Source: Dehalococcoidia bacterium (lineage in GTDB: Bacteria > Chloroflexota > Dehalococcoidia > DSTF01 > JACRBR01). From it: a stretch of DNA of 64,000 nt. Below are positions 21,387 to 50,813 of the stretch, piece by piece. The stretch lies in the NCBI GenBank assembly GCA_021462855.1, contig JAJTXQ010000014.1, positions 42,042 through 106,041 on the forward strand, read 5' to 3'. The notes under the pieces are model-generated. The model saw only the letters and a program-made list of their open reading frames with translations, had not been told where the DNA came from and did not search any database. A program made the translations under genes and the position numbers. Numbering within the stretch: position 1 is the first letter of the stretch; each line of letters opens with the position of its first letter.

Positions 21387-21719
21387 TTACCAGCGCAGCA
21401 GGTCAATCTCGTCGATGTTCACCGTCTCGCGGTGCCGGTACACGGCGACGGCAAGCGCGAGCGCGACCGCCGCCTCCGCCGCCGCGATGGCGATGACGAA
21501 CATCGCGAACACCTGCCCATCGAGCGGCCGCGGCGACTCCACGTAGCGCGAGAACGCGAGGAACGTCACGTTCACGGCGTTCAGCATCAACTCCACGCCC
21601 ATCAGGATGCCGACGGCGTTGCGCTTCGACAGCGAGACGTACAGGCCGATGCTGAAGAGCAGCGCGCCGATCACCAGCACGTTCTCGAGCGACACCGAGG
21701 CGAGCACGACGCTAGACAT
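21387..21719 (-). CDS. nuoK: NADH-quinone oxidoreductase subunit K
   Basis: 110 aa, 3 TM, ND4L-like (LSLSKRNAVGILMGVELMLNAVNV). Confidence 0.9.
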   Translation of the reverse strand: MSSVVLASVSLENVLVIGALLFSIGLYVSLSKRNAVGILMGVELMLNAVNVTFLAFSRYVESPRPLDGQVFAMFVIAIAAAEAAVALALAVAVYRHRETVNIDEIDLLRW

Positions 21720-22218: not shown

Positions 22219-22261
22219 GCGCGCCGTCCTTCCCTCGCGGCGCCACCGCCGCACGCGCGCG

Positions 22262-23548
22262 TCATTGCGACTGCGTGCCCGGCTGCACCGGCGCCACCGC
22301 CGGCAGCGACGGCACGTCGATCGTCGAGTAGAAGCGCGGGCGGTCGGGGAATCGCTCGAAGCGCGGCGCGAACACGCGCACCCACGCGACGATGAGCGCC
22401 AGCGCCAGCGCGTTGTTGAGCACGACGTAGATCGGCAGCAGCACGCCCGCGCTCCAGCCTGTCTCCTCCCAGATGAGCACCTCGGCCGCGACCATCAACA
22501 CGTTGACGAGCGCCATCGGCGTCATCCACTTCCAGGCGAAGGCGAGCAACTGGTCGATGCGGAATCGCGGCAGCGTACCGCGCGTCCAGATGAAGAGGAA
22601 GTACACCGCGTACACCTTGCCGATGTAGATCATCCAGCCCGGCACGATCTCATCGAGCTTGTACGCCCACCACCCGCCCAGGAACAGCGTCGCGATGATC
22701 GCCGACACGGTGACGCAGTTGATGAGCTCCGCCGCGTAGTACAGCCCGAACTTCATCCCGGAGTACTCGACGTGGTATCCGCCCGCGATCTCGGACTCCG
22801 CCTCGGCAAGGTCCGCGGGCGTGCGGTTCAGCTCGGCCGAAGACGACATGAAGTAGATCACGAACGCCAGCGGTTGGAGCATGATGAGGAAGAGCCAGTG
22901 ATCCTCCTGGAAGCGCACGATGCCGTCGAGGTTCATCGTCCCCGCGAACATGGCGATGCCCAGCAGCGACATCACGATCGGGATCTCGTACGTCACGAGC
23001 ATCGCGATCACACGCATCGACCCGAACAGCGCGTACTTGTTGTTCGAGCCGTACCCGCCGATGAACACCGCCAGCGCCGCCAGCGACGACATCGCGAAGA
23101 TGAACACGATGCCGGCGTCGAGGCTCGCGAGCGTCATGTTGCGGCCCCACGGGACCACCGCCAGCACCGCGATCCCCGGCACGGTGAACGCGATCGGCGC
23201 CGCCGTGAACACCAGCGCGTCGGCAAGCTTCGGCTGCAGCACTTCCTTCTGCATGAGCTTGATCGCGTCGGCCAGCGGCTGCAGCAGGCCGACCGGCCCG
23301 GGGCGGTTCGGCCCCAGCCGTGACTGCATTCGCCCCACCACGCGCCGCTCGATCCAGATGTTGATGATGGCCGTCACGCCCACGAACGTCACGATGCCGG
23401 CGGCGCCGAGCAACCCGGCCACCACGTAGACGAGCCAGCCCGGCCCGCCGGCGTCGCTGACCAGGTCGCGGATCGCGCCGCTCAGGTTCGACAGGTCGCG
23501 GATGTCCCACCAGTTGTCCGTGATGATCGTCAGCAGCGCGCCGGTCAT
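22262..23548 (-). CDS. nuoH: NADH-quinone oxidoreductase subunit H
   Basis: ND1-like (RRVVGRMQSRLGPNRPGP, YEIPIVMSLLG). ATG 23548 overlaps the nuoD stop (ATGA). Confidence 0.9.
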   Translation of the reverse strand: MTGALLTIITDNWWDIRDLSNLSGAIRDLVSDAGGPGWLVYVVAGLLGAAGIVTFVGVTAIINIWIERRVVGRMQSRLGPNRPGPVGLLQPLADAIKLMQKEVLQPKLADALVFTAAPIAFTVPGIAVLAVVPWGRNMTLASLDAGIVFIFAMSSLAALAVFIGGYGSNNKYALFGSMRVIAMLVTYEIPIVMSLLGIAMFAGTMNLDGIVRFQEDHWLFLIMLQPLAFVIYFMSSSAELNRTPADLAEAESEIAGGYHVEYSGMKFGLYYAAELINCVTVSAIIATLFLGGWWAYKLDEIVPGWMIYIGKVYAVYFLFIWTRGTLPRFRIDQLLAFAWKWMTPMALVNVLMVAAEVLIWEETGWSAGVLLPIYVVLNNALALALIVAWVRVFAPRFERFPDRPRFYSTIDVPSLPAVAPVQPGTQSQ

Positions 23549-24651
23549 CGGTCCACCTCGCCGACGTTGATGTCGATGCTGCCGAGCGTGACGATCGCGT
23601 CGGCGATCGACTGGCCGATCGTCATCTGCGGCAGCACGCTGAGGTTGATCAGCGATGGCGCGCGCACGTGCCAGCGATAGGGCGCCGGCCCGCCGTCGCT
23701 CACGACGTAGAACCCGAGTTCGCCCTTCGGCGACTCGACGCGCGAATACGCCTCTCCGGCCGGCGGCCGCAGCGCGAGCGGCACGTCGACCTTGTGCGGG
23801 CCGTCCGGCAACTCGGCCATGCACTGACGGATGATCCGCAAGCTTTGCTTCATCTCCTCGATCCGGATCACCATCCGGTCATACGAATCGCCGTTGTAGC
23901 CGACCGGGATCTCAAAGTTCATCCGGTCGTACACGCAATAGGGGTCCGCCTTCCGGATATCCCACGCGATGCCGGCGCTGCGCAGCATCGGCCCGCTGAG
24001 CGAGGCGTTGATCGCCATCTCCGGCGTCACGACACCGACGTCGCGCGAGCGCATGAGGATGATCTCGTTTCCGACGATCAGGTTCTCGAGCTCCTCGAAG
24101 CGCGCCGGCAGGTCGTCGTTCACGAGCCAGTCGAGCGCCGGCAAGAACTCGTCCGGGATGTCGAATGCCACGCCGCCGATCCGCATGTAATTCGTGGTGA
24201 TGCGCGCGCCGCACGTCATCTCGAACAGGTCGAGCACCTTCTCGCGGTCGCGGAAGGTGTACATCACCGGCGTCTGCCAGGCGCCGCAGTCGTTGATGAA
24301 CGCGCCGGTCGCCATGCAGTGGCTCGCCACGCGTTGCAGCTCCGAGAACATCGTCCGCAGGTACTGCGCGCGTTCCGGCACGTCGATGCCCGCGAGCTTC
24401 TCCACCGACAGGCAGTAGCCGAGATTCCCGGTCATCGCCGCCAGGTAATCCATGCGGTCCGTGAACGGGATGTTCTGCGTGTACGTGCGCTCTTCGGCCA
24501 GCTTTTCCATGCTGCGGTGCAGGTAGCCGACGACCATCTTCACGTCGGTGACGCGCTCGCCGTCGATCCGCGCGACCATGCGGAACACGCCGTGCGTGCT
24601 CGGGTGCTGCGGTCCGATGTTGACTTCGACGGGCTCCGACTTGATCGGCAC
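23545..24651 (-). CDS. nuoD: NADH-quinone oxidoreductase subunit D (49 kDa)
   Basis: VNIGPQHPSTHGVFRMV... and C-terminal GELGFYVVSDGG...RAPSLINL match Nqo4/NuoD. Confidence 0.9.
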   Translation of the reverse strand: MPIKSEPVEVNIGPQHPSTHGVFRMVARIDGERVTDVKMVVGYLHRSMEKLAEERTYTQNIPFTDRMDYLAAMTGNLGYCLSVEKLAGIDVPERAQYLRTMFSELQRVASHCMATGAFINDCGAWQTPVMYTFRDREKVLDLFEMTCGARITTNYMRIGGVAFDIPDEFLPALDWLVNDDLPARFEELENLIVGNEIILMRSRDVGVVTPEMAINASLSGPMLRSAGIAWDIRKADPYCVYDRMNFEIPVGYNGDSYDRMVIRIEEMKQSLRIIRQCMAELPDGPHKVDVPLALRPPAGEAYSRVESPKGELGFYVVSDGGPAPYRWHVRAPSLINLSVLPQMTIGQSIADAIVTLGSIDINVGEVDR

Positions 24652-24669
24652 GTGATCCTGCTTCGCGCG

Positions 24670-25233
24670 TTATGGCGCGCCCGCGCCCGCGTCGCGCGGG
24701 CGGAACTCGCCGCCGGTCTGCCCCGGCGCCTGCTTCGGGAACTGGCTCAGCCCCGACTTCTGCCCTCCCGGCAACGACATGAAGTCCTTGCGCAACGGGT
24801 GCCCCGGGAACTTGTCCCAGAGGAAGAGGCGCGTGAGCTCCGGGTGGCCCTCGAACGCCACGCCCATCAGGTCGTACACCTCGCGCTCCTGCAGCGTGGC
24901 GCCGATCCAGAGCGGGGCGACCGATGCCACGGCGGGGCGCTCGTGATCCGCCGGCACCTTCACCTCGAAAATGTGGTTCCGCGCCAGCGATGCCAGGTGG
25001 TAGACGACGTCGATGCGCGTGATCATGTCCACGCTGCACATCTGCACCAGGTACTTCGCATCGAGTTCGGGGTCGTCGCGCATGAACGCCATGGCCGCGA
25101 ACAGCGAAGCCGGTTCAAGCACGACGTGTTCGGCGAACGCCTCACGCACGGCGCCCGGCAGCGCCGCGCCCAACCGCTCGGCGACAGCCGTGCCCGGCAG
25201 CGTGACCGTGGCGGGATGCGGCACTACTTCCAC
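24670..25233 (-). CDS. nuoC: NADH-quinone oxidoreductase subunit C (30 kDa)
   Basis: NuoC-like core (EREVYDLMGVAFEGHPELTRLFL). Start is GTG 25233 or 25224, overlapping the nuoA stop, so no room for nuoB. Confidence 0.8.
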   Translation of the reverse strand: MEVVPHPATVTLPGTAVAERLGAALPGAVREAFAEHVVLEPASLFAAMAFMRDDPELDAKYLVQMCSVDMITRIDVVYHLASLARNHIFEVKVPADHERPAVASVAPLWIGATLQEREVYDLMGVAFEGHPELTRLFLWDKFPGHPLRKDFMSLPGGQKSGLSQFPKQAPGQTGGEFRPRDAGAGAP

Positions 25234-25595
25234 TCCATCGCGCCCTTGCGCCACGCGTACGCATATCCGACGAACAGGATCCCCAGGAACAGCACCACCT
25301 CGACGAACGCGTACAGGCCGAGCTGCCGGTACGTCACCGCCCAGGGATACAGGAACACCGCCTCGACATCGAAAATCACGAACAGCAGGCCGAACACGTA
25401 GTACCGCACGTTGTAGCGGACCTGCGCGTTGCCGATCGGCACCATGCCGCACTCGTAGATCGACTCCTTGACCGGATCCGGCTTCCGCGGGCGGATCTTG
25501 AACACCCCGAGCACCACCGAGGCAACGATTGGGAGCAGGGGGAACGCGACCGCAAACAGGAGCAGGAACCCGGCGCGGCCGAATTGCTCAATCAA
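25224..25595 (-). CDS. nuoA: NADH-quinone oxidoreductase subunit A
   Basis: 123 aa, ND3-like (YECGMVPIGNAQVRYNVRYYVFGLLFVIFDVEAVFLYPWA); AGGGAGCAAGAG SD. Confidence 0.85.
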   Translation of the reverse strand: MIEQFGRAGFLLLFAVAFPLLPIVASVVLGVFKIRPRKPDPVKESIYECGMVPIGNAQVRYNVRYYVFGLLFVIFDVEAVFLYPWAVTYRQLGLYAFVEVVLFLGILFVGYAYAWRKGAMEWK

Positions 25596-25829
25596 CTGCT
25601 CTTGCTCCCTGGCGGCACTTTGTGAATTTCTGCGCTAGCGCGCGGAATATATCACAGGCCCCCTGCACGGACAACAGAATCGTGCCCCCGGAACCCTGCC
25701 CAGAGTAGGCGTTCCTGCCACCTCGGCCAATCCCGTTCCACTACGGGCCTTACGCCCCTCAAGTACGGGAAAACCCTGCCGATAGCTCCTGTAGCAGAAG
25801 GAAACCGCATCTCAGCTCGGAGGTAACCG

Positions 25830-25919
25830 ATGTCCCGCTACATCACTGCAGCCCTCATCGCCGGTAACTTCATCGCCGTGGTCGCCATCGCTGCCGCGCC
25901 GTGGTCCTGGGGCCGCTAA
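25830..25919 (+). CDS. 29-aa hydrophobic micro-ORF (MSRYITAALIAGNFIAVVAIAAAPWSWGR)
   Basis: ATG at 25830 with a GGAGGT SD 6 nt upstream; single predicted TM; TAA stop; 100 nt upstream of a polytopic membrane protein. Too short for the ORF track. Confidence 0.35.
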   Translation: MSRYITAALIAGNFIAVVAIAAAPWSWGR

Positions 25920-26020
25920 CCGGCCGCCGGCAAGCGAAACGCGATGCCCCGCCTGGCGGGGCATCTTCGCATCTGCGGCAGAAGCCGATACTCCGGCGGC
26001 CGCACCGACCGGGGAGAGCC

Positions 26021-26590
26021 ATGCCGACGCCCACCAACCGCATCGTCCTGAGCACATCGCTGGCGCTCGCGCTCCTGCTCGCCCAGGCGCTGACCATCCG
26101 CTTCGCGCCGTCCGAGCTTGCCGTGCGCATCGTCCTGCCCGCGACGATCGCGCTCGTGCCGCTCGCGCTGTGGCCGCAGCGGCGCTTCGCGGGCGTGTGG
26201 GTGATGTTCGTTGGCCTTGCCGCGAACCTCGCGGCGATCCTCTCGAACGGCGGACTGATGCCGATCCGTTACGACACCGTCGTCCACGCCGTCGGCGAAG
26301 CACGCGCGGCCACGTATGCGCCCGGCGCCTGGATGCCCCGCTCGAAGGACGTGCTGCTGGCGCCCGGCGACGGGCGCCTCGTCGCGCTCGGCGACGAGAT
26401 CATCGTGCGCACCGGGCGGCGCGGGTTCGCCGTGAGCGCCGGCGACCTCGTCATCCTCGCAGGCATGGCCGTGCTCGTCGCACAGGCGTCGTGGGAGTGG
26501 CAGCGGCGGCGCGCGCCACGGGGGGAGGGCGGCGTGCCTACTCCTCGCGCGGCACGCCACCCCGCCACCACGGGGCGTACCCCGCGATAG
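26021..26590 (+). CDS. polytopic membrane protein of unknown function (DUF5317-like by recollection)
   Basis: ATG 26021 with GGGGAGAG SD; about 4 TM helices; NGGLMPIR and GDEIIVRTG..SAGDLVILAG motifs. Family assignment is from memory and not verified. Confidence 0.5.
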   Translation: MPTPTNRIVLSTSLALALLLAQALTIRFAPSELAVRIVLPATIALVPLALWPQRRFAGVWVMFVGLAANLAAILSNGGLMPIRYDTVVHAVGEARAATYAPGAWMPRSKDVLLAPGDGRLVALGDEIIVRTGRRGFAVSAGDLVILAGMAVLVAQASWEWQRRRAPRGEGGVPTPRAARHPATTGRTPR

Positions 26591-26766
26591 CGAGGGCAAG
26601 GTCTATCGCGGACGCCACCGGAGCCATCGTATGGCCGCTGTCTGACGAGATTCTGACCGCCGCACGTTGGTGATACCCCGGTCGCCGCGCCACTTCGCCA
26701 TGTCAACGGCGCGAACGCAAGGGAGGCCCGGCGGGCCTCCCCTGTCGCGCGATCCGTATCTCCGCG

Positions 26767-27051
26767 CTAGCCGGTGATGGCGTCGACCTTCGCCCGCGCG
26801 GCCGCCTTGTCCTTGTACCACAGCGCATTGATCTCGGTGAACGGCTTCGCGGCGTCCGGCACGTCGTCCTCGGCGAAGATCGCGTTCACCGGGCATGCCG
26901 GCTCGCAGGCGCCGCAGTCGATGCACTCGTCCGGGTCGATGTACAGCAGCTTGTCATCGTCGCCTTCGTCGTGGATGCAGTCCACCGGACAGACGTCCAC
27001 GCACGAGCGGTCCTTCGTGCCGATGCAGGGGTCGGTGATGACGTAGGCCAT
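26767..27051 (-). CDS. fdxA: 7Fe ferredoxin ([3Fe-4S][4Fe-4S], FdxA-type)
   Basis: [30 protein letters not shown]...[18 protein letters not shown]: CxxDxxC...CP and CxxCxxC...CP motifs. Confidence 0.85.
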
Positions 27052-27132
27052 GGTTTGAGTTCGCTCCTTGTGTGCCTTTCCGAGTCGCTGGTCCGGCGAT
27101 CCGCGGGCATTGTAGGCACGGCCCAACGCTAA

Positions 27133-27624
27133 GTGAAGGAGGTTTGCGAAGTCTTTGCTTCGCTTATCCAGCGGATTGTCGGAATCGATACCCGGCCCGA
27201 CAATGCCACCGTGGATGACTCACGCGACCCCATCCTGCGTCGCATCGCGGCGCTCGCCGGCGAGTACGATGCGACGGCGGAGCCGTTCGTCGTGCAGTGC
27301 CTGCACGCCGGGCACGATGTCGCCATCGCCGCCGCGGCGCTCGACCTGCTCTGCCGCCGCTGGAGCCGCACCGCGGAGTACCTCGACGCGGTGCATCTCT
27401 TCGTGCGCGGCGTCGCGTGGGACGAGGGCGACCGGCTCCGGCTCGCTGCCATCGCCATTGCCGGCGCGTGGCTCCAGGAGCGCGAGGACCTGCCGCTGCT
27501 CTATGAGCTCATCGACATCGCCGAACGCGGCGACGGCGCCAGCGACGCCGTGCGCGACGGCGCGGTGCGCGCGCTCGCGCGTGCGACGGGCTATCGCGGC
27601 AAGCCGATCAGCCTCGACCTCTAA
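27133..27624 (+). CDS. hypothetical protein (alpha-helical)
   Basis: ORF with GTG 27133; the first ~25 codons have atypical low GC3, so the true start may be further downstream. No recognisable family. Confidence 0.3.
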
Positions 27625-38765: not shown

Positions 38766-38840
<75 letters not shown>

Positions 38841-38944: not shown

Positions 38945-39424
38945 TTACTTGACCTCGAGCTTGCCGAGCATCGTCGCCGGGTGGACGACGCACCAGTAGA
39001 AGTAGTCGCCGGCCTCCAGCGTCAGCTTCAGCTCGTGCTTGACCGGGCCGTTGCTGATCTCCGTCGAGCCGAGCAGCTCGCCGGTCTCGTCCTCTCCCTT
39101 GTACACCTCGATGTTATGGGCGACGCCGGGGTCCTGGTTGTCCAGGATGATCGTGATGGGGCCGGCCGCGGCCTCGATCTCCGGCGTGTCCCAGAGCGTG
39201 TTCTTGGCGGTGATCGTGAACGTGTTGTCGCCGCCGCCCGACGGCGTCTCCGACGACGAGGTCGCCGCCGCCGTGGGGCTGCCGGCAGCCGCCGGCTTTG
39301 TCGCCGTGGCGCCGCCGCCGTTGCCGCCGTCGTCATCGCCGCCGCCGCCACAGGCGACGAATGCGAATGTCAACGCCGCGGCCGCAGCGGCGATGACCAG
39401 TGCCTTCCTTCCTCGGACCATCAT
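38945..39424 (-). CDS. cupredoxin (type-1 blue copper) lipoprotein, putative electron donor to NosZ
   Basis: Lipoprotein signal with lipobox LTFAFVAC and a Gly/Asp-rich linker; cupredoxin ligands H (VAHNIEVY) and C-x2-H-x4-M (YWCVVHPATM). Exceptionally purine-rich SD before the ATG. Confidence 0.8.
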   Translation of the reverse strand: MMVRGRKALVIAAAAAALTFAFVACGGGGDDDGGNGGGATATKPAAAGSPTAAATSSSETPSGGGDNTFTITAKNTLWDTPEIEAAAGPITIILDNQDPGVAHNIEVYKGEDETGELLGSTEISNGPVKHELKLTLEAGDYFYWCVVHPATMLGKLEVK

Positions 39425-39734
39425 CTCTCCTTGTTCCTTCCTTCCTCCTCCTCACGCGCGGACGCCCCGCAACGTGTCGGTTGCGTTCGAGGCTGTGCCG
39501 GGGACTACGCTGCCGCGGGGCGCGGGGCACAGCGCACGGTCCAGCCGTGGCTCAACCCCACTGTATCGCCTGACGACAGATTGGACGAGGCCCGGTCAGA
39601 AAGTGAGTCCATTCGGCCCCCTGCGGCCCGTGCCAAGTACCGAGCACGCACGGCCGGTCATCCCTTCCGATTCGTGGGCTTTTTCACGATCATGAGGAGG
39701 ACGCCTTAACCGTTCCGTAACAGGAGGAGGGAAC

Positions 39735-41777
39735 ATGAGACCCAAGGGCCGATTCCTCGCCATCCTCGCCGTGATGGCATCGCTCCTGCTCACGCTGGGC
39801 GTAACCGTGAGCTGCAGCGACGACGACAACGGCAACGGCAACGGATCCGCCGGGAGCGGCGATTTGGACGCGATTGCCCAGGAGCGCGGGCTTTCGCCGG
39901 ATGACATGCGGCACGCGCTCCAGAGCTTCGTCCCGCCCGGCAAGTTCGACGACTACGTGCTGCTGGCCTCGGGCGGCCACTCCGGGCAGATGCTCGTGAT
40001 CGGCATGCCGTCGATGCGCATCCTCAAGGTCATCGGCGTGTTCACCCCCGAGCCGTGGCAGGGTTACCTCTACGGTTCCGACTGGGGCGAGGTCGCGAAC
40101 GTGGACGCTGACCAGGCCAACCCGCCAACCGAGCTGAGCTGGGGCGACACGCACCACCCCGCAATCAGCGAGACCAACGGCGAGTACGACGGCCGGTTCG
40201 TGTACATCCAGGACCGCGCGAACGGGCGGGTTGGATTCGTCGACCTGCGCGACTTCCGCACGAAGCAGGTCCTCGCCATCCCGAACATCCAGACGTCCCA
40301 CGGCGGCATGTTCGTGACGCCGAACTCCGAGTACGTCCACGTCTCCTCGAAGTTCCCGGAGGTGTGGCCCGAGGGAGCGTATGCGGACCTCACCGAGTAC
40401 AAGGAGAAGTACCACAGCGTCTCGACGTGGCTGAAGATCGACCAGACCACGGGCAAGCTCAACCTCGCCGAGAGCTTCCAGGTCGAGATCCCGCCCTACA
40501 CGCAGGACCTCGCCGACGCGGGCAAGAAAGTCAGCGACGGCTGGGGCTTCATCGGCTCGTTCAACACCGAGATGGCCACCGGCGGCAACATGGAAGGTGG
40601 CCAGTCGATGGAGGCGGGCGCGTCGAAGAACAACTTCGACTACCTGCACGCCATCAACTGGAAGAAGGCCGAGGAAGTCGCGAAGGCCGGCAAGGTCGAG
40701 GAGATGAACGGCATCCGCGTCATCCGCCTCCAGACCGCGATCGAAGAAGGCATCCTCTACCTGATCCCCGAGCCCAAGAGCCCCCACGGCATCGACGTGG
40801 ACCCCTCGGGCCGGTACATGGTCGTCGGTGGCAAGCTTGACCCGCACGTCACCGTCTACGACTTCAACAAGATGCAGACCGCCATCGAGAACAAGGACTT
40901 CGAGGGGAACGACGTCTTCGGCGTGCCGATCCTCAAGTTCGACTCGGTGATGTCCGGCCAGGTCGAAGTCGGCGCGGGCCCGCTGCACACGCAGTTCGAC
41001 AGCAAGGGCCACGGCTACACGTCGCTCTTCCTGGAGAGCGCCGTCGCCAAGTTCACGCTCGGCGACGACGTCGTGCAGACCGGCGAGACGCCGTACACGC
41101 TCGTCGACAAGGTCGCGGTCAACTACAACATCGGCCACCTCGCGATCACCGAGGGCGACACGACGACGCCAGACGACAAGTACCTCGTCGCGCTGAACAA
41201 GTGGTCGATCGACCGGTTCCTGACCGTCGGTCCGCTGCACCCGCAGAACTTCCAGCTGATCGACCTCAAGGGAGGCGACGGCGGGAAGATGGAACTCATC
41301 TCCGACATGCCGATCGGCGTCGGCGAGCCGCACTACGTGCAGATCATCAAGGCCGACAAGATCAAGGCGCTCGATGTCTACCCGGCCGGCACCGACTCAG
41401 CGACGATGCAGAAGAGCGAGTTCGCCATCGAGGGTGGCCAGGAGAAGACGGAGCGCAACGGCAACACCGTCGAGGTGTGGATGTCCGCGCAGCGGAGCCA
41501 CTTCACCCCCGACATCATCCGCGTGAAGCAGGGCGACACCGTCAAGCTCCACATCACGAACGTCGAACAGACGAAGGACGCCACGCACGGGTTCGGCATC
41601 GCCGACTACAACATCCAGGCGAGCCTGGAGCCGGGCGAAGTGTCGAACTTCGAGTTCACCGCAGACAAGTCGGGCGCGTTCAACTTCTACTGCACGGAGT
41701 TCTGCTCGGCGCTGCACCTGGAAATGGCGGGCTGGCTGCTCGTCGAGCCCGCGGGCTCGGCCATGGCCGCCCCGTAG
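39735..41777 (+). CDS. nosZ: nitrous-oxide reductase, clade II (Sec/lipoprotein-type) NosZ
   Basis: 680 aa; non-Tat lipoprotein signal (single R; LLLTLGVTVSC); beta-propeller CuZ domain with conserved His ligands; C-terminal CuA cupredoxin motif HGFGI...FYCTEFCSALHLEMAG. Confidence 0.93.
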   Translation: MRPKGRFLAILAVMASLLLTLGVTVSCSDDDNGNGNGSAGSGDLDAIAQERGLSPDDMRHALQSFVPPGKFDDYVLLASGGHSGQMLVIGMPSMRILKVIGVFTPEPWQGYLYGSDWGEVANVDADQANPPTELSWGDTHHPAISETNGEYDGRFVYIQDRANGRVGFVDLRDFRTKQVLAIPNIQTSHGGMFVTPNSEYVHVSSKFPEVWPEGAYADLTEYKEKYHSVSTWLKIDQTTGKLNLAESFQVEIPPYTQDLADAGKKVSDGWGFIGSFNTEMATGGNMEGGQSMEAGASKNNFDYLHAINWKKAEEVAKAGKVEEMNGIRVIRLQTAIEEGILYLIPEPKSPHGIDVDPSGRYMVVGGKLDPHVTVYDFNKMQTAIENKDFEGNDVFGVPILKFDSVMSGQVEVGAGPLHTQFDSKGHGYTSLFLESAVAKFTLGDDVVQTGETPYTLVDKVAVNYNIGHLAITEGDTTTPDDKYLVALNKWSIDRFLTVGPLHPQNFQLIDLKGGDGGKMELISDMPIGVGEPHYVQIIKADKIKALDVYPAGTDSATMQKSEFAIEGGQEKTERNGNTVEVWMSAQRSHFTPDIIRVKQGDTVKLHITNVEQTKDATHGFGIADYNIQASLEPGEVSNFEFTADKSGAFNFYCTEFCSALHLEMAGWLLVEPAGSAMAAP

Positions 41778-41850
41778 CAATCAACTCCACTGGCGGTGCG
41801 GGCCACGGTGGCCCGCACCCGCCCGTGGTGCATCTTGAGGGAGGTGCATC

Positions 41851-42531
41851 ATGAACAAGATCTTCGGTAAGCCTGACCTGACGTGGATCGTTAGCGCCGT
41901 CATCGCCTGCGCGCTGCTCGCCAGCTCCGCGCTCGTCCCGCTGTGGAAGATGGAGCTCGTCGCGCCGCAATACCCGGAGGGCCTCGTCATGAAGGCGTTC
42001 GGGTACAAGTTCGTCGACGACCCGGGCAGCCGGTACGATGATGTGCGCGAGATCAACGGCCTCAACCACTACATCGGCATGAAGCCGATCGAGGAAGTCT
42101 TCGAGATGCAGATGTTCCTGCCCGGCCTCGCCGCGCTGATCGTCGGCACGCTCGTGCTGAGCTTCGTGAAGTGGCGCCGCACGTGGGTGCGCGGGGTGCT
42201 CATCGCGGGCTTCTGGTTCATCCCGCTGTTCTTCCTCGCCGACCTGCAGGCATGGCTGTACTACTACGGGCACACCATGGACCCCGAAGCCGCGCTCAAC
42301 ACCGGCGACTTCACGCCAAAGGTGATCGGCACGACGAAGGTGTGGAACTTCCACTCCGAGAACAGCGTCGACATCGGCTTCTGGCTGATGGTCATGGCCG
42401 CCCTCGTCATTACGTTCGTACCGCTGTCGGTACGGCTGTTCCGCCGCCTGCGCGCCGCGTCTCCCTCAAACCGGCGCGCAGAGACGGCGGGCCGCGCCGC
42501 AAGCGTCGGCAGCATGAGCGGAGCGCGATAA
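41851..42531 (+). CDS. polytopic membrane protein, NosB-like (clade II nos accessory)
   Basis: 226 aa, 5-6 TM, immediately after nosZ as nosB is in clade II clusters. Family assigned by position and topology only. Confidence 0.55.
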   Translation: MNKIFGKPDLTWIVSAVIACALLASSALVPLWKMELVAPQYPEGLVMKAFGYKFVDDPGSRYDDVREINGLNHYIGMKPIEEVFEMQMFLPGLAALIVGTLVLSFVKWRRTWVRGVLIAGFWFIPLFFLADLQAWLYYYGHTMDPEAALNTGDFTPKVIGTTKVWNFHSENSVDIGFWLMVMAALVITFVPLSVRLFRRLRAASPSNRRAETAGRAASVGSMSGAR

Positions 42532-44036
42532 TGCGTACGCTCGCCGTGGCCGCCGTCCTGGCAGCTACGGCAATCCTGGGGGTGGGCGCGCAGACCGGCG
42601 CGCACAGCGCTGGCGAGGCGCCCACCCTGCAGGAGCGCATCGACCAGGCCGCGCCCGAAGACATCATCGTCGTCGAGGGCGGCACCTTCCACGAGCGCAT
42701 CACCATCAACAAGCCGGTGTCCCTCATCGGGCGCGGCTGGCCCGTCATCGACGGTGGCGGTCAGGGCGACGTCGTGACCATCACCGCCGATGACGCTGTC
42801 ATCTCGGGCTTCGAGGTACGCAACAGCAGCAAGAGCATCTCCACCGAGCCCGCCGCCATCAAGGTCAGCGATGCCGACCGCGTCAGCATCAAGAACAACC
42901 GCGTGCGCGATGCGTACTTCGCGGTGCACATGACGGGCTCGGACAGCAGCACGGTCGCTGACAACGACATCCACGCCGGCGCCGGGGTGGATGAGGGGCG
43001 GCGGGGACACGCGCTGTACCTCTGGGAAGTGCACAACTCGCAGATCCACCGCAACCGCATCCGCGAGGCGGCCGACGGGATCCACCTGGAGTTCGCGAAC
43101 GACAACCTGATCGTCGAGAACACGGTCACCGGCAGCCGCTACGCGCTGCATTTCATGTACTCGCACAAGAACACGATCGTCCGCAACACCTTCACCGGCA
43201 ACCTCGCCGGCGCCGTGCTGATGTTCTCCCACGACCTCGTCGTCAAGGACAACGAGTTCTCGCAGAACCGCGAAGGGGCGACGGGCGCCGGCATGCTGCT
43301 CAAGGACAACGACAACCTCTTCGCCGAGGGCAACCGCATGCTGCGCAACAAGTACGGCATGACGGTTGAAGGCACGCCGCAGACGAAGGGCACCACGGCC
43401 GTGTTCCGCCGCAACCTGTTCGCTCTCAACGACGTCGGCATCGCGCTGACGTCGAACTCGCCGATCACGTTCGTGGAGAACGCGGCGATCGACAACGGCG
43501 TGCAGGTCAAGGCGCTAAGCGGCGCGATCGCCGGCCAGGCGCTCGCCGGCCACGGCGGTTCGCTTCCCGCGCGCGGCCCCGGCGACGATGACGAGCAGGC
43601 GCGCCTGCCCGCGGGCGCCGTGTTCACAAGCAACGGCCGCGGGAACTACTGGAGCGACTACCGCGGCTACGACGCCGACGGCGACGGGGTTGGCGACCAG
43701 CCGTACCTGCCACGCCCGGCGTTCGCCGGCAAGCTGGATGACGACGACACGCTGCGCCTGTTCCAGTTCACCCCGGCGCAGCAGGCGATCGACCTCGCCG
43801 CCGACCTCTTTCCGATCTTCCGCTATCACGCAGTCATCGAGGACCAGGGACCGCTCATGTCACCGCCGGAAGGCCTGGGCGTCCCGCATGGCGAAGGCGT
43901 CAACGTACGCCTGCTCGCTGCGAGCGGCGTCCTGCTGCTCGTTTCGGCGAGCGCCACGCTCTGGCTCTCGGGAGCAGATGCCCGTAACGCATGGCGGGCG
44001 GCCGGCGGCCGCGTTCGGCCCTCGGAGATATCATGA
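42531..44036 (+). CDS. nosD: nitrous-oxidase accessory protein NosD (periplasmic right-handed beta-helix, Cu insertion)
   Basis: Signal peptide, repeated beta-helix NosD/CASH-type repeats (VSGFEVRNSS, NNRVRDAYFAVHM, NTVTGSRYALHFMYS). TAATG overlap with the upstream gene. Confidence 0.88.
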   Translation: MRTLAVAAVLAATAILGVGAQTGAHSAGEAPTLQERIDQAAPEDIIVVEGGTFHERITINKPVSLIGRGWPVIDGGGQGDVVTITADDAVISGFEVRNSSKSISTEPAAIKVSDADRVSIKNNRVRDAYFAVHMTGSDSSTVADNDIHAGAGVDEGRRGHALYLWEVHNSQIHRNRIREAADGIHLEFANDNLIVENTVTGSRYALHFMYSHKNTIVRNTFTGNLAGAVLMFSHDLVVKDNEFSQNREGATGAGMLLKDNDNLFAEGNRMLRNKYGMTVEGTPQTKGTTAVFRRNLFALNDVGIALTSNSPITFVENAAIDNGVQVKALSGAIAGQALAGHGGSLPARGPGDDDEQARLPAGAVFTSNGRGNYWSDYRGYDADGDGVGDQPYLPRPAFAGKLDDDDTLRLFQFTPAQQAIDLAADLFPIFRYHAVIEDQGPLMSPPEGLGVPHGEGVNVRLLAASGVLLLVSASATLWLSGADARNAWRAAGGRVRPSEIS

Positions 44037-44881
44037 ATGCGATGCCTGATGACAAACCACGGCCCATGCTCCGCGTGCAGTCGCTCCAGCGCTCGTACGG
44101 CAAGCGCGTGGTGCTGCGCGACGTCACCTTCGATGCGGCGGCCGGCAGCGTCATAGCGCTACTCGGCAGCAACGGCGCCGGCAAGACCACCGCGCTCAAG
44201 TGCATCCTCGGCGTCATCTCGTTCGGCGGCGAGATAGAGGTCGACGGCTGCTCCGTGAAGAAGGACGGCAAGGAGGCGCGCAAGCGCATCGGCTACGTGC
44301 CGCAACTGCCCGCCCTGGCCGAGGGCGACACCTGCCAGCAGGCGCTCGAATTCATCGCCGACCTGAAGGGCGCGCCACGCGCCGGGATCACGCCCGCGCT
44401 CGAGCTCGTGAACCTGGCGCAGGAGCGCGACGCGAGGATCGGCCAGCTCTCCGGCGGCATGCGCCAGCGCCTGGCCGTCGCCGCGGCCGTGCTGGGCGGC
44501 CCGCCCGTGCTGCTGCTCGACGAGCCGACGGCCAGCCTCGACATCGACAGCAAGCGGGAGTTCCAGCAGCTGATCCTGCGCCTGCGCGACGAGGGTAAGA
44601 CGATCATCCTCTCGACGCACTTCTTCGAGCACCTCGAGGAGCTTGCCGACCGCGTGCTCATCCTGCATGACGGCCGCGTCGCCTTCGATGGCACGACCGA
44701 CGACCTGGCGGCGACGTCCCGCAGCAAGCGCCTCGTCGTCAACCTCAACGGGCACAGCCCGTCGGAGACCGCCGCCGTCCTCGAACGCGCGGGCATCGAC
44801 CGCTCGCGCATCCAGCCCGTAGCGATGGGCTGGGAGGACATCGTGCTGGCGACGCAGCAGACCGAGGAGGACGCGCAATGA
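44033..44881 (+). CDS. nosF: ABC transporter ATP-binding protein NosF
   Basis: Walker A GSNGAGKTT, signature LSGGMRQR, Walker B LLLDEPT. ATGA overlap with the nosD stop. Confidence 0.85.
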   Translation: MNAMPDDKPRPMLRVQSLQRSYGKRVVLRDVTFDAAAGSVIALLGSNGAGKTTALKCILGVISFGGEIEVDGCSVKKDGKEARKRIGYVPQLPALAEGDTCQQALEFIADLKGAPRAGITPALELVNLAQERDARIGQLSGGMRQRLAVAAAVLGGPPVLLLDEPTASLDIDSKREFQQLILRLRDEGKTIILSTHFFEHLEELADRVLILHDGRVAFDGTTDDLAATSRSKRLVVNLNGHSPSETAAVLERAGIDRSRIQPVAMGWEDIVLATQQTEEDAQ

Positions 44882-45702
44882 ACGCCGTCGTCACCGTTGC
44901 CCGCAAGGAAGTGCGCGACGCGCTCAACAGCACGTGGCTGCTCCTCTACGCGGTGATGTTCACCGCGCTCGCTCTCGGCCTCTCGTACCTCGGCGAGCGC
45001 AACCTCGGCTCGCTCGGGTTCGAGAACTTCAGCCGCACGACCGCGAGCCTGCTCAACCTGTGCCTGCTGCTGGCGCCGCTCGTCGCGCTCGCGCTGAGTT
45101 CGGGCGCGATCGCAGGCGAGCGCGACCGCGGCACGCTGACGTTCCTGCTCGCGCAGCCACTCGAGCGCTGGGAGCTGCTGCTTGGCAAGTACGCCGGCCT
45201 CGCCGCGTCGATCGGGCTCGCGACGGCCGCCGGGTTCGGCGTCGCCGGCAGCCTCATCGCGCTGCAGTCCTCGGCGATGGACGCAGGGACGTACATCCTG
45301 TTCCTCGGCCTCGTGCTGGCGCTGATCGTGGTGATGACGGGGCTCGGCCTCGTCGTGTCGGTCGTGTCGGAGTCGCGCGTGCAGGCGCTTGGCATGGCGA
45401 TGCTGATCTGGTTCGTGGCGGCCTTCTTCTTCGACCTCGTGCTGATCGGCATGGTGTCGACGACGTCGCTCGGCGGCGGCGGCCTGCTGCTCGCGCTGCT
45501 TGCGAACCCGATCGAGATCGTGCGCGTGCTGGCGATCATCCGGCTCGAGCCGGACCTGCAGATCCTCGGGCCCTTCGGCTCGTACCTCATGGAGCGCGTC
45601 GGCACGACAGGCGCGACGGTGATCCTCAGCACGGCGCTGCTGGCGTGGATCGCCGTGCCGGTCGGCATCGCCGCATGGCTGTTCGAGGCGCGGGAGGACT
45701 GA
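44878..45702 (+). CDS. nosY: ABC-2 type permease NosY
   Basis: 274 aa, 6 TM, follows nosF with ATGA overlap; GAGGAGG SD. Confidence 0.8.
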   Translation: MNAVVTVARKEVRDALNSTWLLLYAVMFTALALGLSYLGERNLGSLGFENFSRTTASLLNLCLLLAPLVALALSSGAIAGERDRGTLTFLLAQPLERWELLLGKYAGLAASIGLATAAGFGVAGSLIALQSSAMDAGTYILFLGLVLALIVVMTGLGLVVSVVSESRVQALGMAMLIWFVAAFFFDLVLIGMVSTTSLGGGGLLLALLANPIEIVRVLAIIRLEPDLQILGPFGSYLMERVGTTGATVILSTALLAWIAVPVGIAAWLFEARED

Positions 45703-46001
45703 TGGGCCGATGGATCGTCCCGGCCATCGGCGCGCTCGTCCTCAGCGTCGCGATCGTCGCTGGCGCGCTCATTTGGGCCGGCTCCTCCGGCAGCGAGGCA
45801 TCGTGCGACCGCAACGCGCTCGCCGATGCGGCGCGTGACGGGATCGCCGCCGCCGAGCGGGCCGACGACCAGCAAGTGACGATCGAGATGGGCGACGGCT
45901 GCGGGGACGCCGACCTCGAGTTCGTCCTGCCCGAGGTCACTCGGGACTGGCACGTCATGCCCGGCGGCACGCTGATGCGCGCTTCCCAGCACTCCAACTA
46001 G
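45702..46001 (+). CDS. small N-terminally anchored protein at the end of the nos cluster (possible minimal NosL-like; unassigned)
   Basis: 99 aa, one TM then a soluble domain with Cys/Met/His (GDGCGDAD..HVMPGG). TGATG overlap with nosY. Shorter than typical NosL (~170-190 aa). Confidence 0.4.
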   Translation: MGRWIVPAIGALVLSVAIVAGALIWAGSSGSEASCDRNALADAARDGIAAAERADDQQVTIEMGDGCGDADLEFVLPEVTRDWHVMPGGTLMRASQHSN

Positions 46002-46084: not shown

Positions 46085-47098
46085 ATGGAATCCGCTGCAA
46101 CCGATTCGCAGGCGGCGACATTCCTGCGACTGATGACCGAGGCCGAATGGTCCGCGCTGCGCGCGACCATGGAGCGGCGCGCGTACGCCGCGGGCGTGCG
46201 CCTCATCGAGCAGGGGACGCCCGAACCGGAGTTCCACGTCATCGTCGAGGGCACCGTCACGGTGATGGCAACCGGGCCGCATGGCGAGCCGCGCGAGGTC
46301 GGCCTCCTGGGGCCGGGTGACGCGCTTGGCGACATGTCGCTCCTCACCGGCGAGCCCGCCTCCGCCGACGCCGTGGCACGCACAGCGGTCACGACATACG
46401 CCATGCCGCAGGAGCGCGTCGCCGCGCTCGGCGACATGCGCGCGCGCATCATGGAAGCGCTGGCGATGCTCCTCGCGCAGCGGCTGCGGCACGCCAATGA
46501 ACGGCTCGTCGCGAGGTACGCCGCGTGCGTCCACACGATCACCTGCGAGCCGTGCGACCTGCCCGCGCTCGCGCGCCTCCCGCACGAGATGGCACGCGTC
46601 GTCGGTGCGCCCGTGCTGGCAATCACGCCTGCGGGTGCGAGCAACGCGTCTGGCCTGCGCCCTTCGGCGCGCGTCACCGTGCGCGAGTGCGACGAACCAG
46701 CGCAGGCGCGCGACCTCCAGCGGCGGGCGGCGTTCGAGTTCGACCAGATCGTTGTGTTCGCGGCGCCCGGCACCGAGGCGCAGATCGATGGCGAGCTCAC
46801 CTCGCACACGCAGGCGCTCCGCGAAGGCGCGTCCACGACCGTGGCCGGGGACTGCGACGTCATCGCGCTCAGCCCGCTGCGCTGGACGCGCCCGGCGCTC
46901 CGCACGCTGGGCGGCGCCTTCGGCCGGAACGTGGTGGCGTGGTCCCCGCCGAACCGCAGCCGGCGCAGCACCGCGATCCCGTCGCAAAGCTCGCGCGCGT
47001 GCTCACCGGAAGGCAGGTCGGACTGGCGCTCGGCGCCGGCGCGGCGAAGGGGCTCGCGCACATCGGCGCGCTCCGCGCGATCGACGAAATGGGCGTGA
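46085..47098 (+). CDS. cyclic-nucleotide-binding (CAP_ED) domain ORF; likely N-terminal part of a cNMP-binding patatin-like phospholipase disrupted by a frameshift
   Basis: RLIEQGTPEPEFHVIVEGTVTVMATGPHGEPREVGLLGPGDALGDMSLLTGEPASADAVA matches the cNMP-binding beta-roll (GE...R.A phosphate-binding cassette). After about nt 46930 the frame becomes an R/S-rich shadow. Confidence 0.55.
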   Translation: MESAATDSQAATFLRLMTEAEWSALRATMERRAYAAGVRLIEQGTPEPEFHVIVEGTVTVMATGPHGEPREVGLLGPGDALGDMSLLTGEPASADAVARTAVTTYAMPQERVAALGDMRARIMEALAMLLAQRLRHANERLVARYAACVHTITCEPCDLPALARLPHEMARVVGAPVLAITPAGASNASGLRPSARVTVRECDEPAQARDLQRRAAFEFDQIVVFAAPGTEAQIDGELTSHTQALREGASTTVAGDCDVIALSPLRWTRPALRTLGGAFGRNVVAWSPPNRSRRSTAIPSQSSRACSPEGRSDWRSAPARRRGSRTSARSARSTKWA

Positions 47099-47808
47099 CG
47101 GCAGACGTCATCGCCGGCACGAGCATCGGCGCGGCGGTGGCCGCCGGGGGGGCGGCCGGCTACACGCCGCCGGAGCTCGACGAGGTGGTGTCGCGCATCG
47201 CCAGGCGCGCCCTGCGGCCGACGGTGCCGCTGCATTCGTTCCTGAGCAGCCGCGGCATCCGTGACGAGTTGGAGCTGGTCGGCGCGGGGCGGCGGTTCGA
47301 GGACCTCGACATCCCGCTCGCGATCTGCGCGACGGACATCGACCTGCGGCAGGAGGTGACGTTCACGACGGGCATCGTCTGGCCGCGCATTCTCGCCAGC
47401 ATGGCGATGCCCGGGATCTACCCCGCGCTCCGGTCCGGCGACAGTTACCTCGTCGATGGTGGCGTGCTGAACCCGATTCCGGCGCGCCAGTGCCGCATGC
47501 TCGGCGCCGGCGTCGTCGTGGCGCTGCGGCTCAGCGGCAAGCGCCACGACACGCCCCGCGCGGCCGGGACGAAGCCGAACCGCCCGTTCGCTCCGGACAC
47601 CATCCTCCGGTCGATGGAGATCATGCACAACCGCCTGTCCGAAATGAGCCGCCACGAGTCGGACCTGACGGTCGAGATGGCGATCGAGCACGGGGGGTTG
47701 CGCGACTTCCGCCGCAGGGAAGAGACTATCGACGAGGGCTACCGCGCAACGCTCGCCGCCGGGCAGGAGATCCGCGCGCTGCTCCCGTACGTCGGGGAGA
47801 GCGCATGA
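46946..47808 (+). CDS. patatin-like phospholipase domain (frame +1 relative to the cNMP ORF)
   Basis: GLALGAGAAKGLAHIGALRAIDEMGV (oxyanion GGxK), GTSIGAAVAA (GxSxG) and LVDGGVLNPIP (catalytic DGG). Candidate GTG start 46946; the track's frame-1 ORF from 46525 is low-complexity before that point. Confidence 0.6.
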
Positions 47809-49664: not shown

Positions 49665-50813
49665 ATGGCATCGCGCGGCGCGCCCGCTGACGGCAGCAAG
49701 CACTGGCGCACGCTCTCGCTCAGTCCCGGCGCGCCCGAGTGCGTGATCCGCGCCGCGCACCGCTACTACATCGAGTTGCACCACCCGGACCGTGGCGGCG
49801 ACGTCGCCGCGGCGCAGAGGATCAACGTCGCGAACGACGAGCTGCGAGACGCCGGGGCGAATGCCAACGAGTACGTCGCGGCGAACTTCAACGGCGAACC
49901 GTGGCTCGTGCTCGGCCTCGCCGCCAATGCGCCCAAGGAGCTCGCCGAGCGGGCGAGCCGCGCGCTCGCGCGCGAGCTGAACGAGCATCGCCGGCTCGCC
50001 GAGCGCGTCGCGTGGGCGGCCGAGCACTTCGGGCGCGCGGCGCGCGTGCGCATCCGCCCCGCGACGCCGCCGCCGCCACCGCGCCCGGAGCCCTCGCCGA
50101 AGCCGCGCCCGCCTGCCGTGCCCGGCATCCCCGAGGGGCTGGCGAGCAACGTCCATCTCGGCACGCTGCCTTGGGGCGCCGGCGTCTCCCACGACATCCG
50201 CCTCACCTGGCGCGAACACGCACCCTACGGCGTGCGCGCCGAGACGTCGGGCGCGTTGCGGGCCGAGGTCAACGAGTCGCGCGCGGTGCCGGGCCGGTTC
50301 GTGGTGTCGCTCTCCATCGACTGGGGCGCGATCCCGCCGCCCGACAGCCCGCGCAGCGCGGCATTCGTAGAGTCGGTGCGCCTGGCATGGGGCGGCGGAG
50401 GGAGCGCGACGATCCACGTGCACGCCACCCTGCAACGTCCGCCGGCGATCACCGCACAGCCCGCCGAGATCGACATGGGCACGACGACGCGCGGACAGCC
50501 GGCGCGCGCCACGCTCGTGCTCACGAGCACCGCCATGGCGACGGCGCACGTCTCATGCTCGGCCTGGCTCAAGCGCGTGGATGCCGCAGGACGCGAGGTC
50601 GATGAAGATGTGCGGCTGCGCGCCGATACGCCGGTCCGCCTCTCGTTCGCGGTCGACTGGGCGCCGATCGACGATCGCGCGAAGCGGTGGCCCGTGCGGC
50701 CGACCGGCAAGATCACGGTCCGCTGGAGCGACGGGACGATCGATGTGCCGGTGCAGATGGTAGCCAACGATGCCCGCGCGCCGGTGTCCGCGCGCCCTTC
50801 GACGCGGCGCTAG
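49665..50813 (+). CDS. J-domain (HPD) protein with Pro-rich linker and beta-rich C-terminal domain of unknown function
   Basis: YYIELHHPDRGGD J-domain motif; PPPPPRPEPSPKPRPP linker; ~230-aa C-terminal domain with no recognisable motif. Confidence 0.55.
   Translation: MASRGAPADGSKHWRTLSLSPGAPECVIRAAHRYYIELHHPDRGGDVAAAQRINVANDELRDAGANANEYVAANFNGEPWLVLGLAANAPKELAERASRALARELNEHRRLAERVAWAAEHFGRAARVRIRPATPPPPPRPEPSPKPRPPAVPGIPEGLASNVHLGTLPWGAGVSHDIRLTWREHAPYGVRAETSGALRAEVNESRAVPGRFVVSLSIDWGAIPPPDSPRSAAFVESVRLAWGGGGSATIHVHATLQRPPAITAQPAEIDMGTTTRGQPARATLVLTSTAMATAHVSCSAWLKRVDAAGREVDEDVRLRADTPVRLSFAVDWAPIDDRAKRWPVRPTGKITVRWSDGTIDVPVQMVANDARAPVSARPSTRR

Follow-up and report, generated by a model that had tools for sequence, protein, structure and literature searches.

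We analysed a 64-kb stretch of DNA (64,000 nt, referred to below as the window) from an uncultured high-GC member of the Dehalococcoidia (Chloroflexota), which carries genes for a nitrous oxide (N2O) reductase and its maturation between positions 38945 and 46001. Judging from the predicted proteins, it is likely that this nos region encodes a complete and probably functional clade II system for the reduction of N2O to N2. The region is a divergon, in which the gene for a cupredoxin lipoprotein on the minus strand lies opposite to the series nosZ-nosB-nosD-nosF-nosY-p99 on the plus strand, p99 being the gene for an anchored protein of 99 aa. All seven reading frames are intact and have a coding-type composition. 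In addition, 80 clade II nosZ loci were fetched, and the related public loci that were compared with the window are designated by L-numbers. The features of the region are as follows.

38766..38840, plus strand: tRNA-Gly (anticodon GCC), found with ARAGORN and with the Rfam tRNA model (71.4 bits)
38945..39424, minus strand: cupredoxin lipoprotein, 159 aa (Pfam Cupredoxin_1 and Copper-bind)
39425..39734, no strand: divergent intergenic region of 310 nt between the cupredoxin gene and nosZ, with presumed promoters (sequence read)
39735..41777, plus strand: nosZ, predicted clade II Sec-type nitrous-oxide reductase, 680 aa (TIGR04246)
41851..42531, plus strand: nosB, four-helix membrane protein, 226 aa (position, helices, homology to reference NosB)
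42531..44036, plus strand: nosD, beta-helix maturation protein, 501 aa (TIGR04247, Pfam NosD)
44033..44881, plus strand: nosF, ATPase of an ATP-binding cassette (ABC) transporter, 282 aa, or 296 aa if the start is at 43991 (Pfam ABC_tran)
44878..45702, plus strand: nosY, ABC-2 type permease, 274 aa (Pfam ABC2_membrane_2)
45702..46001, plus strand: p99, anchored protein, 99 aa (ribosome binding site, third-position GC content, ratio of nonsynonymous to synonymous substitution rates; no family match)

The NosZ protein was scored with clade-specific hidden Markov models (HMMs). With the model for Sec-dependent clade II enzymes (TIGR04246) it reached 787.6 bits (cut-off 625), whereas its scores were below threshold for the twin-arginine translocation (Tat) model (TIGR04244, 402.3 bits, cut-off 625) and for the clade III model (NF052460 L-NosZ, 214.6 bits, cut-off 700). 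The leader, MRPKGRFLAILAVMASLLLTLGVTVSC, contains no RR pair, and no twin-arginine motif was present in it when the alignment was read. It ends in a TVSC lipobox, which is followed by a tether rich in Asp and Gly, and lipobox leaders also occur in the NosZ proteins of the closest relatives (L003-L006). A search against solved NosZ structures gave an E value of about 1e-92, and the protein was aligned to 5i5m. The copper ligands were assigned by alignment to the crystal-structure ligands and by the numbering of the Pseudomonas stutzeri enzyme. In an alignment of 77 NosZ sequences, i.e. that of the window and 76 from related loci, the presumed CuZ ligands H140, H141, H189, H305, H351, H418 and H533 as well as the CuA ligands H618, C653, C657, H661 and M664 were kept in 97-100 % of the sequences. 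Together, these findings characterize NosZ as a predicted Sec-type enzyme with all copper ligands retained. A preliminary description of this DNA, made from the sequence alone, had placed NosZ in clade II and had ascribed to it a Sec/lipoprotein leader and a CuA-containing C-terminus, and both assignments are upheld by the models and the alignment. The closest NosZ proteins are from metagenome-assembled genomes of Chloroflexota/Dehalococcoidia and are 66-79 % identical.

The 226-aa protein encoded downstream of nosZ is NosB, as judged by its position, its four helices and its homology. NosB has been defined as a membrane protein with 4-6 helices that is encoded directly after clade II nosZ (PMC11096178, PMC11388526, PMC11409646), and in about 70 of the 80 clade II loci, a nosB homologue is located after nosZ. 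The protein has no Pfam or NCBIfam family. The NosB-C2 fusion protein of Sulfurimonas denitrificans (ABB45043.1), which was taken from the reference set of PMC11409646, matched it in a BLASTP search with an E value of 4e-17 and 28 % identity over 185 aa. The two proteins share the motifs APxYP and NHYxGM, and the cytochrome c domain of the Sulfurimonas protein is missing from the NosB of the window. Among 65 NosB sequences, the motifs APQYPxGL and LNHYxGM are conserved. The match to the Sulfurimonas protein and the conserved slot thus put the earlier label "NosB-like" on firm ground.

In the AlphaFold2 model of NosB (predicted local distance difference test, pLDDT, 88.5; predicted template modelling score, pTM, 0.82), four long membrane helices are combined with a five-stranded extracytoplasmic sheet. 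A metal site in NosB was considered and rejected, as the 65 sequences have no more than one conserved His (H73) and one conserved Met (M77, 86 %). Because of the lone conserved His and the predicted fold, NosB is more likely to be a non-redox membrane auxiliary or scaffold subunit than to have a redox role. In the searchable literature, no paper was found that pairs NosB with a structural analysis. Several close NosB homologues turned out to be mislabelled in public databases as "cytochrome C" (NCBI) or "copper chaperone NosL" (JGI), and neither domain is present in them; others are labelled "hypothetical protein" (label set P0024, P0042, P0063, P0111, P0114, P0116). Surveys of these genomes that are based on annotations may thus arrive at wrong counts of cytochromes and NosL.

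The following three genes encode the putative maturation proteins. NosD was recognized by TIGR04247 (345.7 bits, cut-off 300) and by the Pfam NosD model (122.7 bits). It has an N-terminal signal peptide and, from reading of the translation only, a hydrophobic C-terminal stretch, LLAASGVLLLVSASATLWL, that resembles a membrane anchor. NosF scored 105 bits with Pfam ABC_tran, and its slot after nosD is kept in related loci, while NosY scored 115.3 bits with Pfam ABC2_membrane_2 and is 67-81 % identical to the product of the gene that follows nosF in the closest loci. NosF and NosY were named by their position and their conservation with other nos loci, and not by a specific model. With these three proteins, the window is predicted to encode the NosDFY maturation ABC system.

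The order nosZ-nosB-nosD-nosF-nosY without NosL is also found in L002, L003, L005, L006, L011, L053, L074, L082, L090 and L093, with protein identities of 66-96 %. This conservation of a NosL-less layout speaks for a maintained, working system. When the neighbours of nosZ in the 80 loci were clustered, three groups were obtained. The first group, to which the window belongs, contains L002-L006, L011, L053 and L074, to which L082-87, L090 and L093 were added, and is characterized by a lipobox NosZ, usually an adjacent cupredoxin gene, and the lack of NosL and of cytochrome c. The second, a sister group of the first, is made up of Tepidiformaceae-like Chloroflexota. They have NosZ leaders of the Tat type, a cupredoxin gene upstream and NosL between nosZ and nosB, and the loci of Caldarchaeales archaea resemble theirs. 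Leaders of the type S/T-R-R-E-L together with nosL between nosZ and nosB were found in L013, L014, L016-L019, L021, L022, L024, L028 and L051. The third group comprises distant Anaerolineae, Myxococcota, Planctomycetota and Rhodobacteraceae, in which cytochrome c genes are present and NosL follows nosY. Over a range of 60-66 % NosZ identity, a change of the export route thus seems to have been accompanied by a change in the presence of NosL.

Some relatives of the first group carry additional genes at the edge of the nos cluster. Directly next to the nos genes, L003 (2125-4944, minus strand) and L005 (16125-18929, plus strand) encode a molybdopterin oxidoreductase (about 935 aa; Pfam Molybdopterin and Molydop_binding), and L053 has a similar large open reading frame (ORF) there (7224-9752, minus strand). 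The protein bears a Nar-type resemblance by eye and has no counterpart in the window. Other genes at the edges are of a thiol-redox-like kind. In L002, an AhpC/TSA-Redoxin protein (7710-8687, plus strand) is encoded next to a p99 homologue, and in L006, a lipoprotein with a C-x3-F-C motif and without a Pfam family (16016-16942, plus strand) follows nosY.

Within the window, the genes of the operon are closely packed and translationally coupled. The nosB/nosD junction (TAATG) and the nosY/p99 junction (TGATG) are overlaps of 1 nt, while 4-nt overlaps (ATGA) are present at nosF/nosY and, if nosF starts at position 44033, also at nosD/nosF (44033-44036). The latter start, which yields the 282-aa protein, was also called in L082, whose copy is 89 % identical. 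Nearly all genes had earlier been thought to be coupled by 4-nt overlaps; this is right for nosD/nosF and nosF/nosY, and has to be corrected for the other two junctions. A gap of 73 nt separates nosZ and nosB, and Shine-Dalgarno motifs precede nosB and also the ATG of nosZ, the latter having the sequence GGAGGAGGG. The GC content at third codon positions (GC3) is 0.91-0.93 in nosZ, nosB and nosF and lower in the broader reading frames of nosD and nosY, and is within the range of the window. In the 310 nt that separate nosZ from the divergent cupredoxin gene, no inverted repeat, no Rfam match and no match to the sigma-70 consensus were found. An alignment of the intergenic regions with those of five relatives revealed that a short palindromic motif, GGGCC-N5-GGCCC, and the sequence TTGCGCAA are common to L002, L003 and L090, and they are kept in the window only in part.

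Candidate electron donor and absent components

The cupredoxin exceeded the cut-offs of two Pfam models, i.e. Cupredoxin_1 (PF13473, 31 bits, cut-off 27) and Copper-bind (PF00127, 21.8 bits, cut-off 21.2). Its leader has an FVAC lipobox and a long, flexible tether rich in Gly, Asp, Thr and Ala, and the leaders of its homologues are alike. In a sequence search of the PDB, a weak match to amicyanin was obtained (E value 0.014). The HN and C-x2-H...M motifs of amicyanin, whose copper-binding residues are established, align with VAHNI and C-V-V-H-P-A-T-M (C-x2-H-x3-M) of the window protein, and these motifs recur in the homologues of L002, L003, L006 and L090. By the Pfam scores and these motifs, the cupredoxin of the window is a type-1 (blue) copper protein with a predicted copper site. 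A kinship with auracyanin was not supported by the sequence, as at E values of up to 1 the PDB search returned nothing but amicyanins; pseudoazurin and halocyanin were also absent from the matches in that range.

No c-type cytochrome was found within the 64 kb. The C-x-x-C-H motif does not occur in any coding-type frame across the 64 kb, and each of the four CxxCH matches lies in a non-coding or antisense frame. An HMM for NosL, made from 55 nos-linked sequences, did not match any of the six frames of the window (best E value 0.9). The NosH-like, NosG-like, cytochrome c, Rrf2 and TlpA-like proteins that are nos-linked in the related loci were likewise turned into HMMs, which had no match in the window either. 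Pfam scans of the remaining large ORFs of the window did not reveal nir, nor or nar genes, NosR, cytochrome bc or alternative complex III, but identified a complex I (nuo) operon besides genes with housekeeping functions. That operon is located at about 16217-27219 on the minus strand, 12-22 kb upstream of the nos genes, and encodes three antiporter-like subunits together with NuoK, NuoH, NuoD, NuoA and a 4Fe-4S subunit; no other respiratory complex is encoded in the window. The cupredoxin is also the sole free-standing cupredoxin in the 64 kb. In the 64 kb, the scans thus revealed neither cytochrome c, NosG/H, NosR or NosL nor a DNA-binding regulator, and the cupredoxin is the only candidate for an electron carrier in the region. 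This agrees with the preliminary description, in which the cluster had no c-type cytochrome, NosG/NosH, NosR or regulator, a conventional NosL was not evident, and the cupredoxin was the only obvious electron donor.

The cyclic nucleotide monophosphate (cNMP)-binding protein that is encoded downstream of the nos genes was considered as a Crp/Fnr-type regulator. It was rejected, as it is a fusion with patatin in which no helix-turn-helix domain was detected, and its gene is frameshifted. A 1-nt deletion near position 46936 splits this gene (46085-47808) into two overlapping frames. In a 408,912-bp contig of the JGI metagenome 3300009873, which is 99.76 % identical to the window over 22 kb (52 substitutions), it is a single gene for 574 aa. 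The split is either a strain or assembly difference, or it marks a pseudogene.

Cupredoxin homologues adjoin nosZ in 22 other loci. Among the 80 clade II loci, 22 have only a cupredoxin, 33 only a cytochrome c, one has both, and 24, many of which are on short contigs, have neither (Fisher p = 4e-6). The NosZ proteins of the cupredoxin-linked loci group together in a neighbour-joining tree. That cupredoxin and cytochrome c are nearly exclusive beside nosZ fits a role of the copper protein as electron donor. Several points weigh against this role and against the completeness of the cluster. The Fisher test ignores phylogeny, so that its statistic is inflated by shared ancestry, and no cupredoxin gene adjoins nosZ in L005 and L053. 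A complex that reduces the cupredoxin was not found within the 64 kb. Furthermore, a cytochrome c, NosL or a regulator could be encoded elsewhere in the genome, e.g. on the other 345 kb of the contig.

One alternative is that the cupredoxin serves another enzyme or copper trafficking, and that NosZ is reduced by a carrier encoded elsewhere. This would be in line with L005 and L053, which have the same nos operon without the adjacent gene, with the divergent orientation of the cupredoxin gene outside the operon, and with the fact that only 64 kb of the genome are in view. However, the adjacency is kept in the 22 loci, which are from Chloroflexota, a genome of the Ilumatobacteraceae and Caldarchaeales archaea, and this both in divergent and in same-strand arrangements. 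The near-exclusivity with cytochrome c and the alignment of the amicyanin copper-site motifs also argue against an unlinked donor, which we therefore regard as unlikely, and the cupredoxin remains our candidate for the donor to NosZ.

Cupredoxins have well-known roles as carriers. Proteins of the pseudoazurin type donate electrons to clade I NosZ, and auracyanin is an electron carrier in the respiration and photosynthesis of Chloroflexus. Like the cupredoxin of the window, auracyanin is membrane-tethered in a Chloroflexota bacterium. For the NirK of haloarchaea, halocyanin has been proposed as the donor (PMC8301774). Like these cupredoxin donors of copper-dependent denitrification, the window protein would be a small type-1 copper protein that, mobile or tethered, supplies a copper enzyme with single electrons. 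It differs from them in that the sequence search yielded amicyanins as its only solved relatives, with weak similarity, and its role as a donor is predicted from sequence.

The 99-aa protein p99

The last gene of the cluster, p99, overlaps nosY by 1 nt and is preceded by the Shine-Dalgarno motif GGGAGGA. Its GC3 is 0.91, and the ratio of nonsynonymous to synonymous substitution rates (dN/dS) is 0.25-0.35 in comparison with copies that are 80 % and 69 % identical. These results showed that p99 is a real gene under purifying selection. The protein has an N-terminal hydrophobic membrane anchor and a domain on the outside, and the members of the family are about 100 aa long. The conserved residues are C35, C67, W83-H84-x-M86-P87, M92-R93 and H97, and the family motif is W-H-x-M-P-G...M-R...H. 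No Pfam or NCBIfam match and no informative fold match were obtained for p99.

The family is small. Three members were retrieved in a word-indexed search of 5.8 billion proteins, 16 representatives in an exhaustive profile search of 1.84 billion cluster representatives, and five loci in a metagenome scan with a narrower p99 alignment. The searchable literature, as far as covered (one key subscription review was not), contains no description of it. The genes are nos-linked in six of nine contexts. In three lineages, i.e. the window, L082-84 and L085-87, p99 follows nosY with a 1-nt overlap, and in L002, L090 and L093, a homologue is located beside the cupredoxin gene upstream of nosZ. Because the genes further downstream are entirely different in L082-84, p99 is linked to the nos genes and not to the flank. 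No further member was found in any of the other fetched nos loci. Three homologues are located away from nos genes, in L088 (884-1685), L089 (1517-1816) and L091 (8001-8815). In L088 and L091, their neighbours are a dienelactone-hydrolase-like gene and the gene for a conserved protein of about 165 aa that is rich in Cys, and in all three loci, a two-component protein, i.e. a GAF-type histidine kinase or a LuxR-type response regulator, is encoded nearby. This setting hints at a second, nos-independent role of the family.

The preliminary description had seen in p99 an anchored Cys/Met/His protein that sits in the place of NosL. The anchor, the conserved residues and the slot were confirmed, whereas a relationship to NosL was not. 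As a divergent NosL, p99 was rejected, because hhalign against 18 NosL proteins, all of which match PF05573, gave a probability of 2.3 %, in addition to the absence of Pfam and NCBIfam matches. The likeness to NosL is restricted to the genomic slot after nosY and the membrane tether. The proteins differ in length (99 aa versus about 150-190 aa) and in their conserved residues (C...C...W-H-x-M-P versus C-x2-C-x-M of NosL), without sequence or profile similarity.

It could nevertheless be envisaged that p99 is a new membrane-anchored Cu(I) chaperone, which takes over the function of NosL and delivers copper to NosDFY or NosZ. The gene is translationally coupled to nosY in the very slot in which nosL sits in many clusters, it is confined to the NosL-less subclade, and the purifying selection and the six nos-linked contexts would agree with such a function. 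Its two conserved Cys and W-H-x-M-P...M-R...H are of a motif type used for Cu(I) binding. However, p99 has no homology to NosL, three members of its family are encoded apart from any nos genes, and p99 is absent, in the DNA examined, from L003, L005, L006 and L053, which also lack NosL. The protein is thus not required by every NosL-less relative, and a replacement of NosL by p99 seems rather unlikely to us. Instead, we regard p99 as a putative lineage-restricted accessory protein; based on its residues and its neighbourhood, our leading guess would be a function in copper handling or in the thiol chemistry of maturation.

Genomic setting and comparison with known systems

A nos cluster directly after the tRNA-Gly gene had been reported in the preliminary description, and all genes were recovered at the positions given there. 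The tRNA gene is 104 nt away from the cupredoxin gene, with two GC-rich hairpins between it and the cupredoxin stop codon. The window as a whole has a GC content of 69 %, and values of 0.64-0.67 across nosZ-nosB contrast with 0.69-0.73 in the flanks. The short distance to the tRNA gene and the slightly lower GC content would be compatible with a horizontally acquired island that was integrated at tRNA-Gly, as would a NosZ tree in which phyla are mixed and the different downstream neighbourhood of the 89-96 % protein-identical copy in L082-84. However, neither the 10 kb on each side nor the scanned ORFs of the remaining window yielded an integrase or mobility gene, the 3' end of tRNA-Gly is not repeated elsewhere in the window (with up to 3 mismatches), and the GC3 of the nos genes is within the range of other window genes. 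With nothing but a mild dip in GC content remaining, an island integrated at the tRNA gene was rejected as improbable.

That the cluster is a decaying or non-functional remnant, as might be suggested by the missing NosL, regulator and cytochrome and by the frameshifted gene just downstream, is highly improbable in the light of seven intact reading frames of coding-type composition, the conservation of all metal ligands, the architecture common to about ten related loci, the dN/dS of p99, and the lack of nosL also in several Bacillota nos clusters (PMC11388526). Elsewhere in the window, three sizeable coding-type ORFs have no Pfam family (49665-50813, plus strand; 2658-4358, plus strand; 6463-8151, minus strand); a 382-aa ORF among them is kept downstream of a MacB-type ABC transporter in L085-87.

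In Wolinella succinogenes and other Campylobacterota, the clade II genes are arranged as nosZ-B-G-C1-C2-H-D-F-Y-L. The window shares with them a Sec-type NosZ, a homologous NosB and NosDFY, but it lacks NosG/NosH, NosC1/C2, the cytochrome c domain of NosB, and NosL. Other known clade II clusters are those of monoderm Bacillota. Geobacillus thermodenitrificans and Bacillus azotoformans have the order nosC-nosZ-ORF(nosB)-nosD-nosY-nosF (PMC3475470, PMC11388526), and the Geobacillus layout has been given as nosCZ-ORF-nosDYF-ORF (PMC3475470). The nosC gene, which precedes nosZ, encodes a lipoprotein cytochrome c, and N2O reductase activity was found in the membrane fraction (PMC3475470); several clusters do not contain nosL (PMC11388526, PMC3475470). 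Both in the Bacillota and in the window, nosZ is followed by the gene for a four-helix NosB and by nosDFY, the gene for a lipoprotein carrier is directly upstream of nosZ, the machinery is membrane-associated, NosR and NosGH are lacking, and nosL is missing, as it often is in the Bacillota. In contrast to the Bacillota, the carrier of the window is a divergently encoded type-1 cupredoxin instead of a monohaem cytochrome c, the maturation genes have the order D-F-Y instead of D-Y-F, NosZ has a lipobox, and the gene for the 99-aa protein is additionally present.

Clade II nosZ genes with nosB have been described in metagenome-assembled Chloroflexota genomes from wastewater, some of them with Tat leaders (PMC11409646), and a Dehalococcoidia genome with clade II nosZ has been described as an N2O sink (PMC10982107). 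The window agrees with these in the phylum, in the position of nosB after nosZ and in the clade of NosZ. The accessory genes described in the two studies are nosB and nosR only. The Tat-leader type of those Chloroflexota corresponds to the sister group L013-L028, which has nosL between nosZ and nosB, whereas the group of the window has lipobox leaders and no nosL. Cupredoxin-linked, NosL-less nos clusters of Chloroflexota were not accounted for in the searchable literature, from which one key subscription review was not covered. The features that had at first been presented as unusual are indeed present, but about ten related public loci have them as well, and for each of them the literature offers a precedent. 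The locus is thus a lineage-specific variant and not a new kind of system.

Proposed mechanism and significance

Every extracytoplasmic part of the system appears to be tethered to the membrane, because lipoprotein leaders are present in NosZ and the cupredoxin, an anchor in p99, and both a signal peptide and a hydrophobic C-terminus in NosD. The common view is that Chloroflexota have no outer membrane, which would explain the anchoring of all of these parts. In the proposed mechanism, NosZ would be exported in an unfolded state via Sec and be attached by its lipid anchor to the cytoplasmic membrane, on the outer face. It would be loaded with copper outside the cell, NosDFY would assemble CuZ, and the supply of copper would work without a NosL encoded in the cluster. 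Electrons would leave the quinol pool through a quinol-oxidising complex that is encoded elsewhere in the genome. They would be taken over by the lipid-anchored cupredoxin, in place of the NosC lipoprotein of the Bacillota or the cytochromes of other clade II systems, and would be passed on to the CuA and then to the CuZ of NosZ.

A much more far-reaching version would be an all-copper N2O line of monoderm Chloroflexota without any c-type cytochrome, in which the blue copper protein is the donor, p99 substitutes for NosL, and NosB is a claudin-like tetraspan scaffold that holds NosZ at NosDFY. We consider it doubtful that all of this applies.

To our knowledge, NosZ is the sole biological N2O sink, and clade II organisms, many of which are non-denitrifiers, are thought to dominate this sink in soils, groundwater and wastewater. 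It is therefore of importance which accessory genes are required when metagenomes are read for the potential of N2O reduction. The group described here has maintained a minimal Chloroflexota set, consisting of the cupredoxin, NosZ, NosB and NosDFY, without NosL, cytochrome c or NosR/GH, and it would be under-called by pipelines in which nosL or cytochrome genes are a requirement. For an entire branch of clade II NosZ enzymes, blue copper proteins are candidates for the donor, and the p99 family and the predicted fold of NosB are leads on how extracellular copper centres may be assembled in bacteria without an outer membrane.

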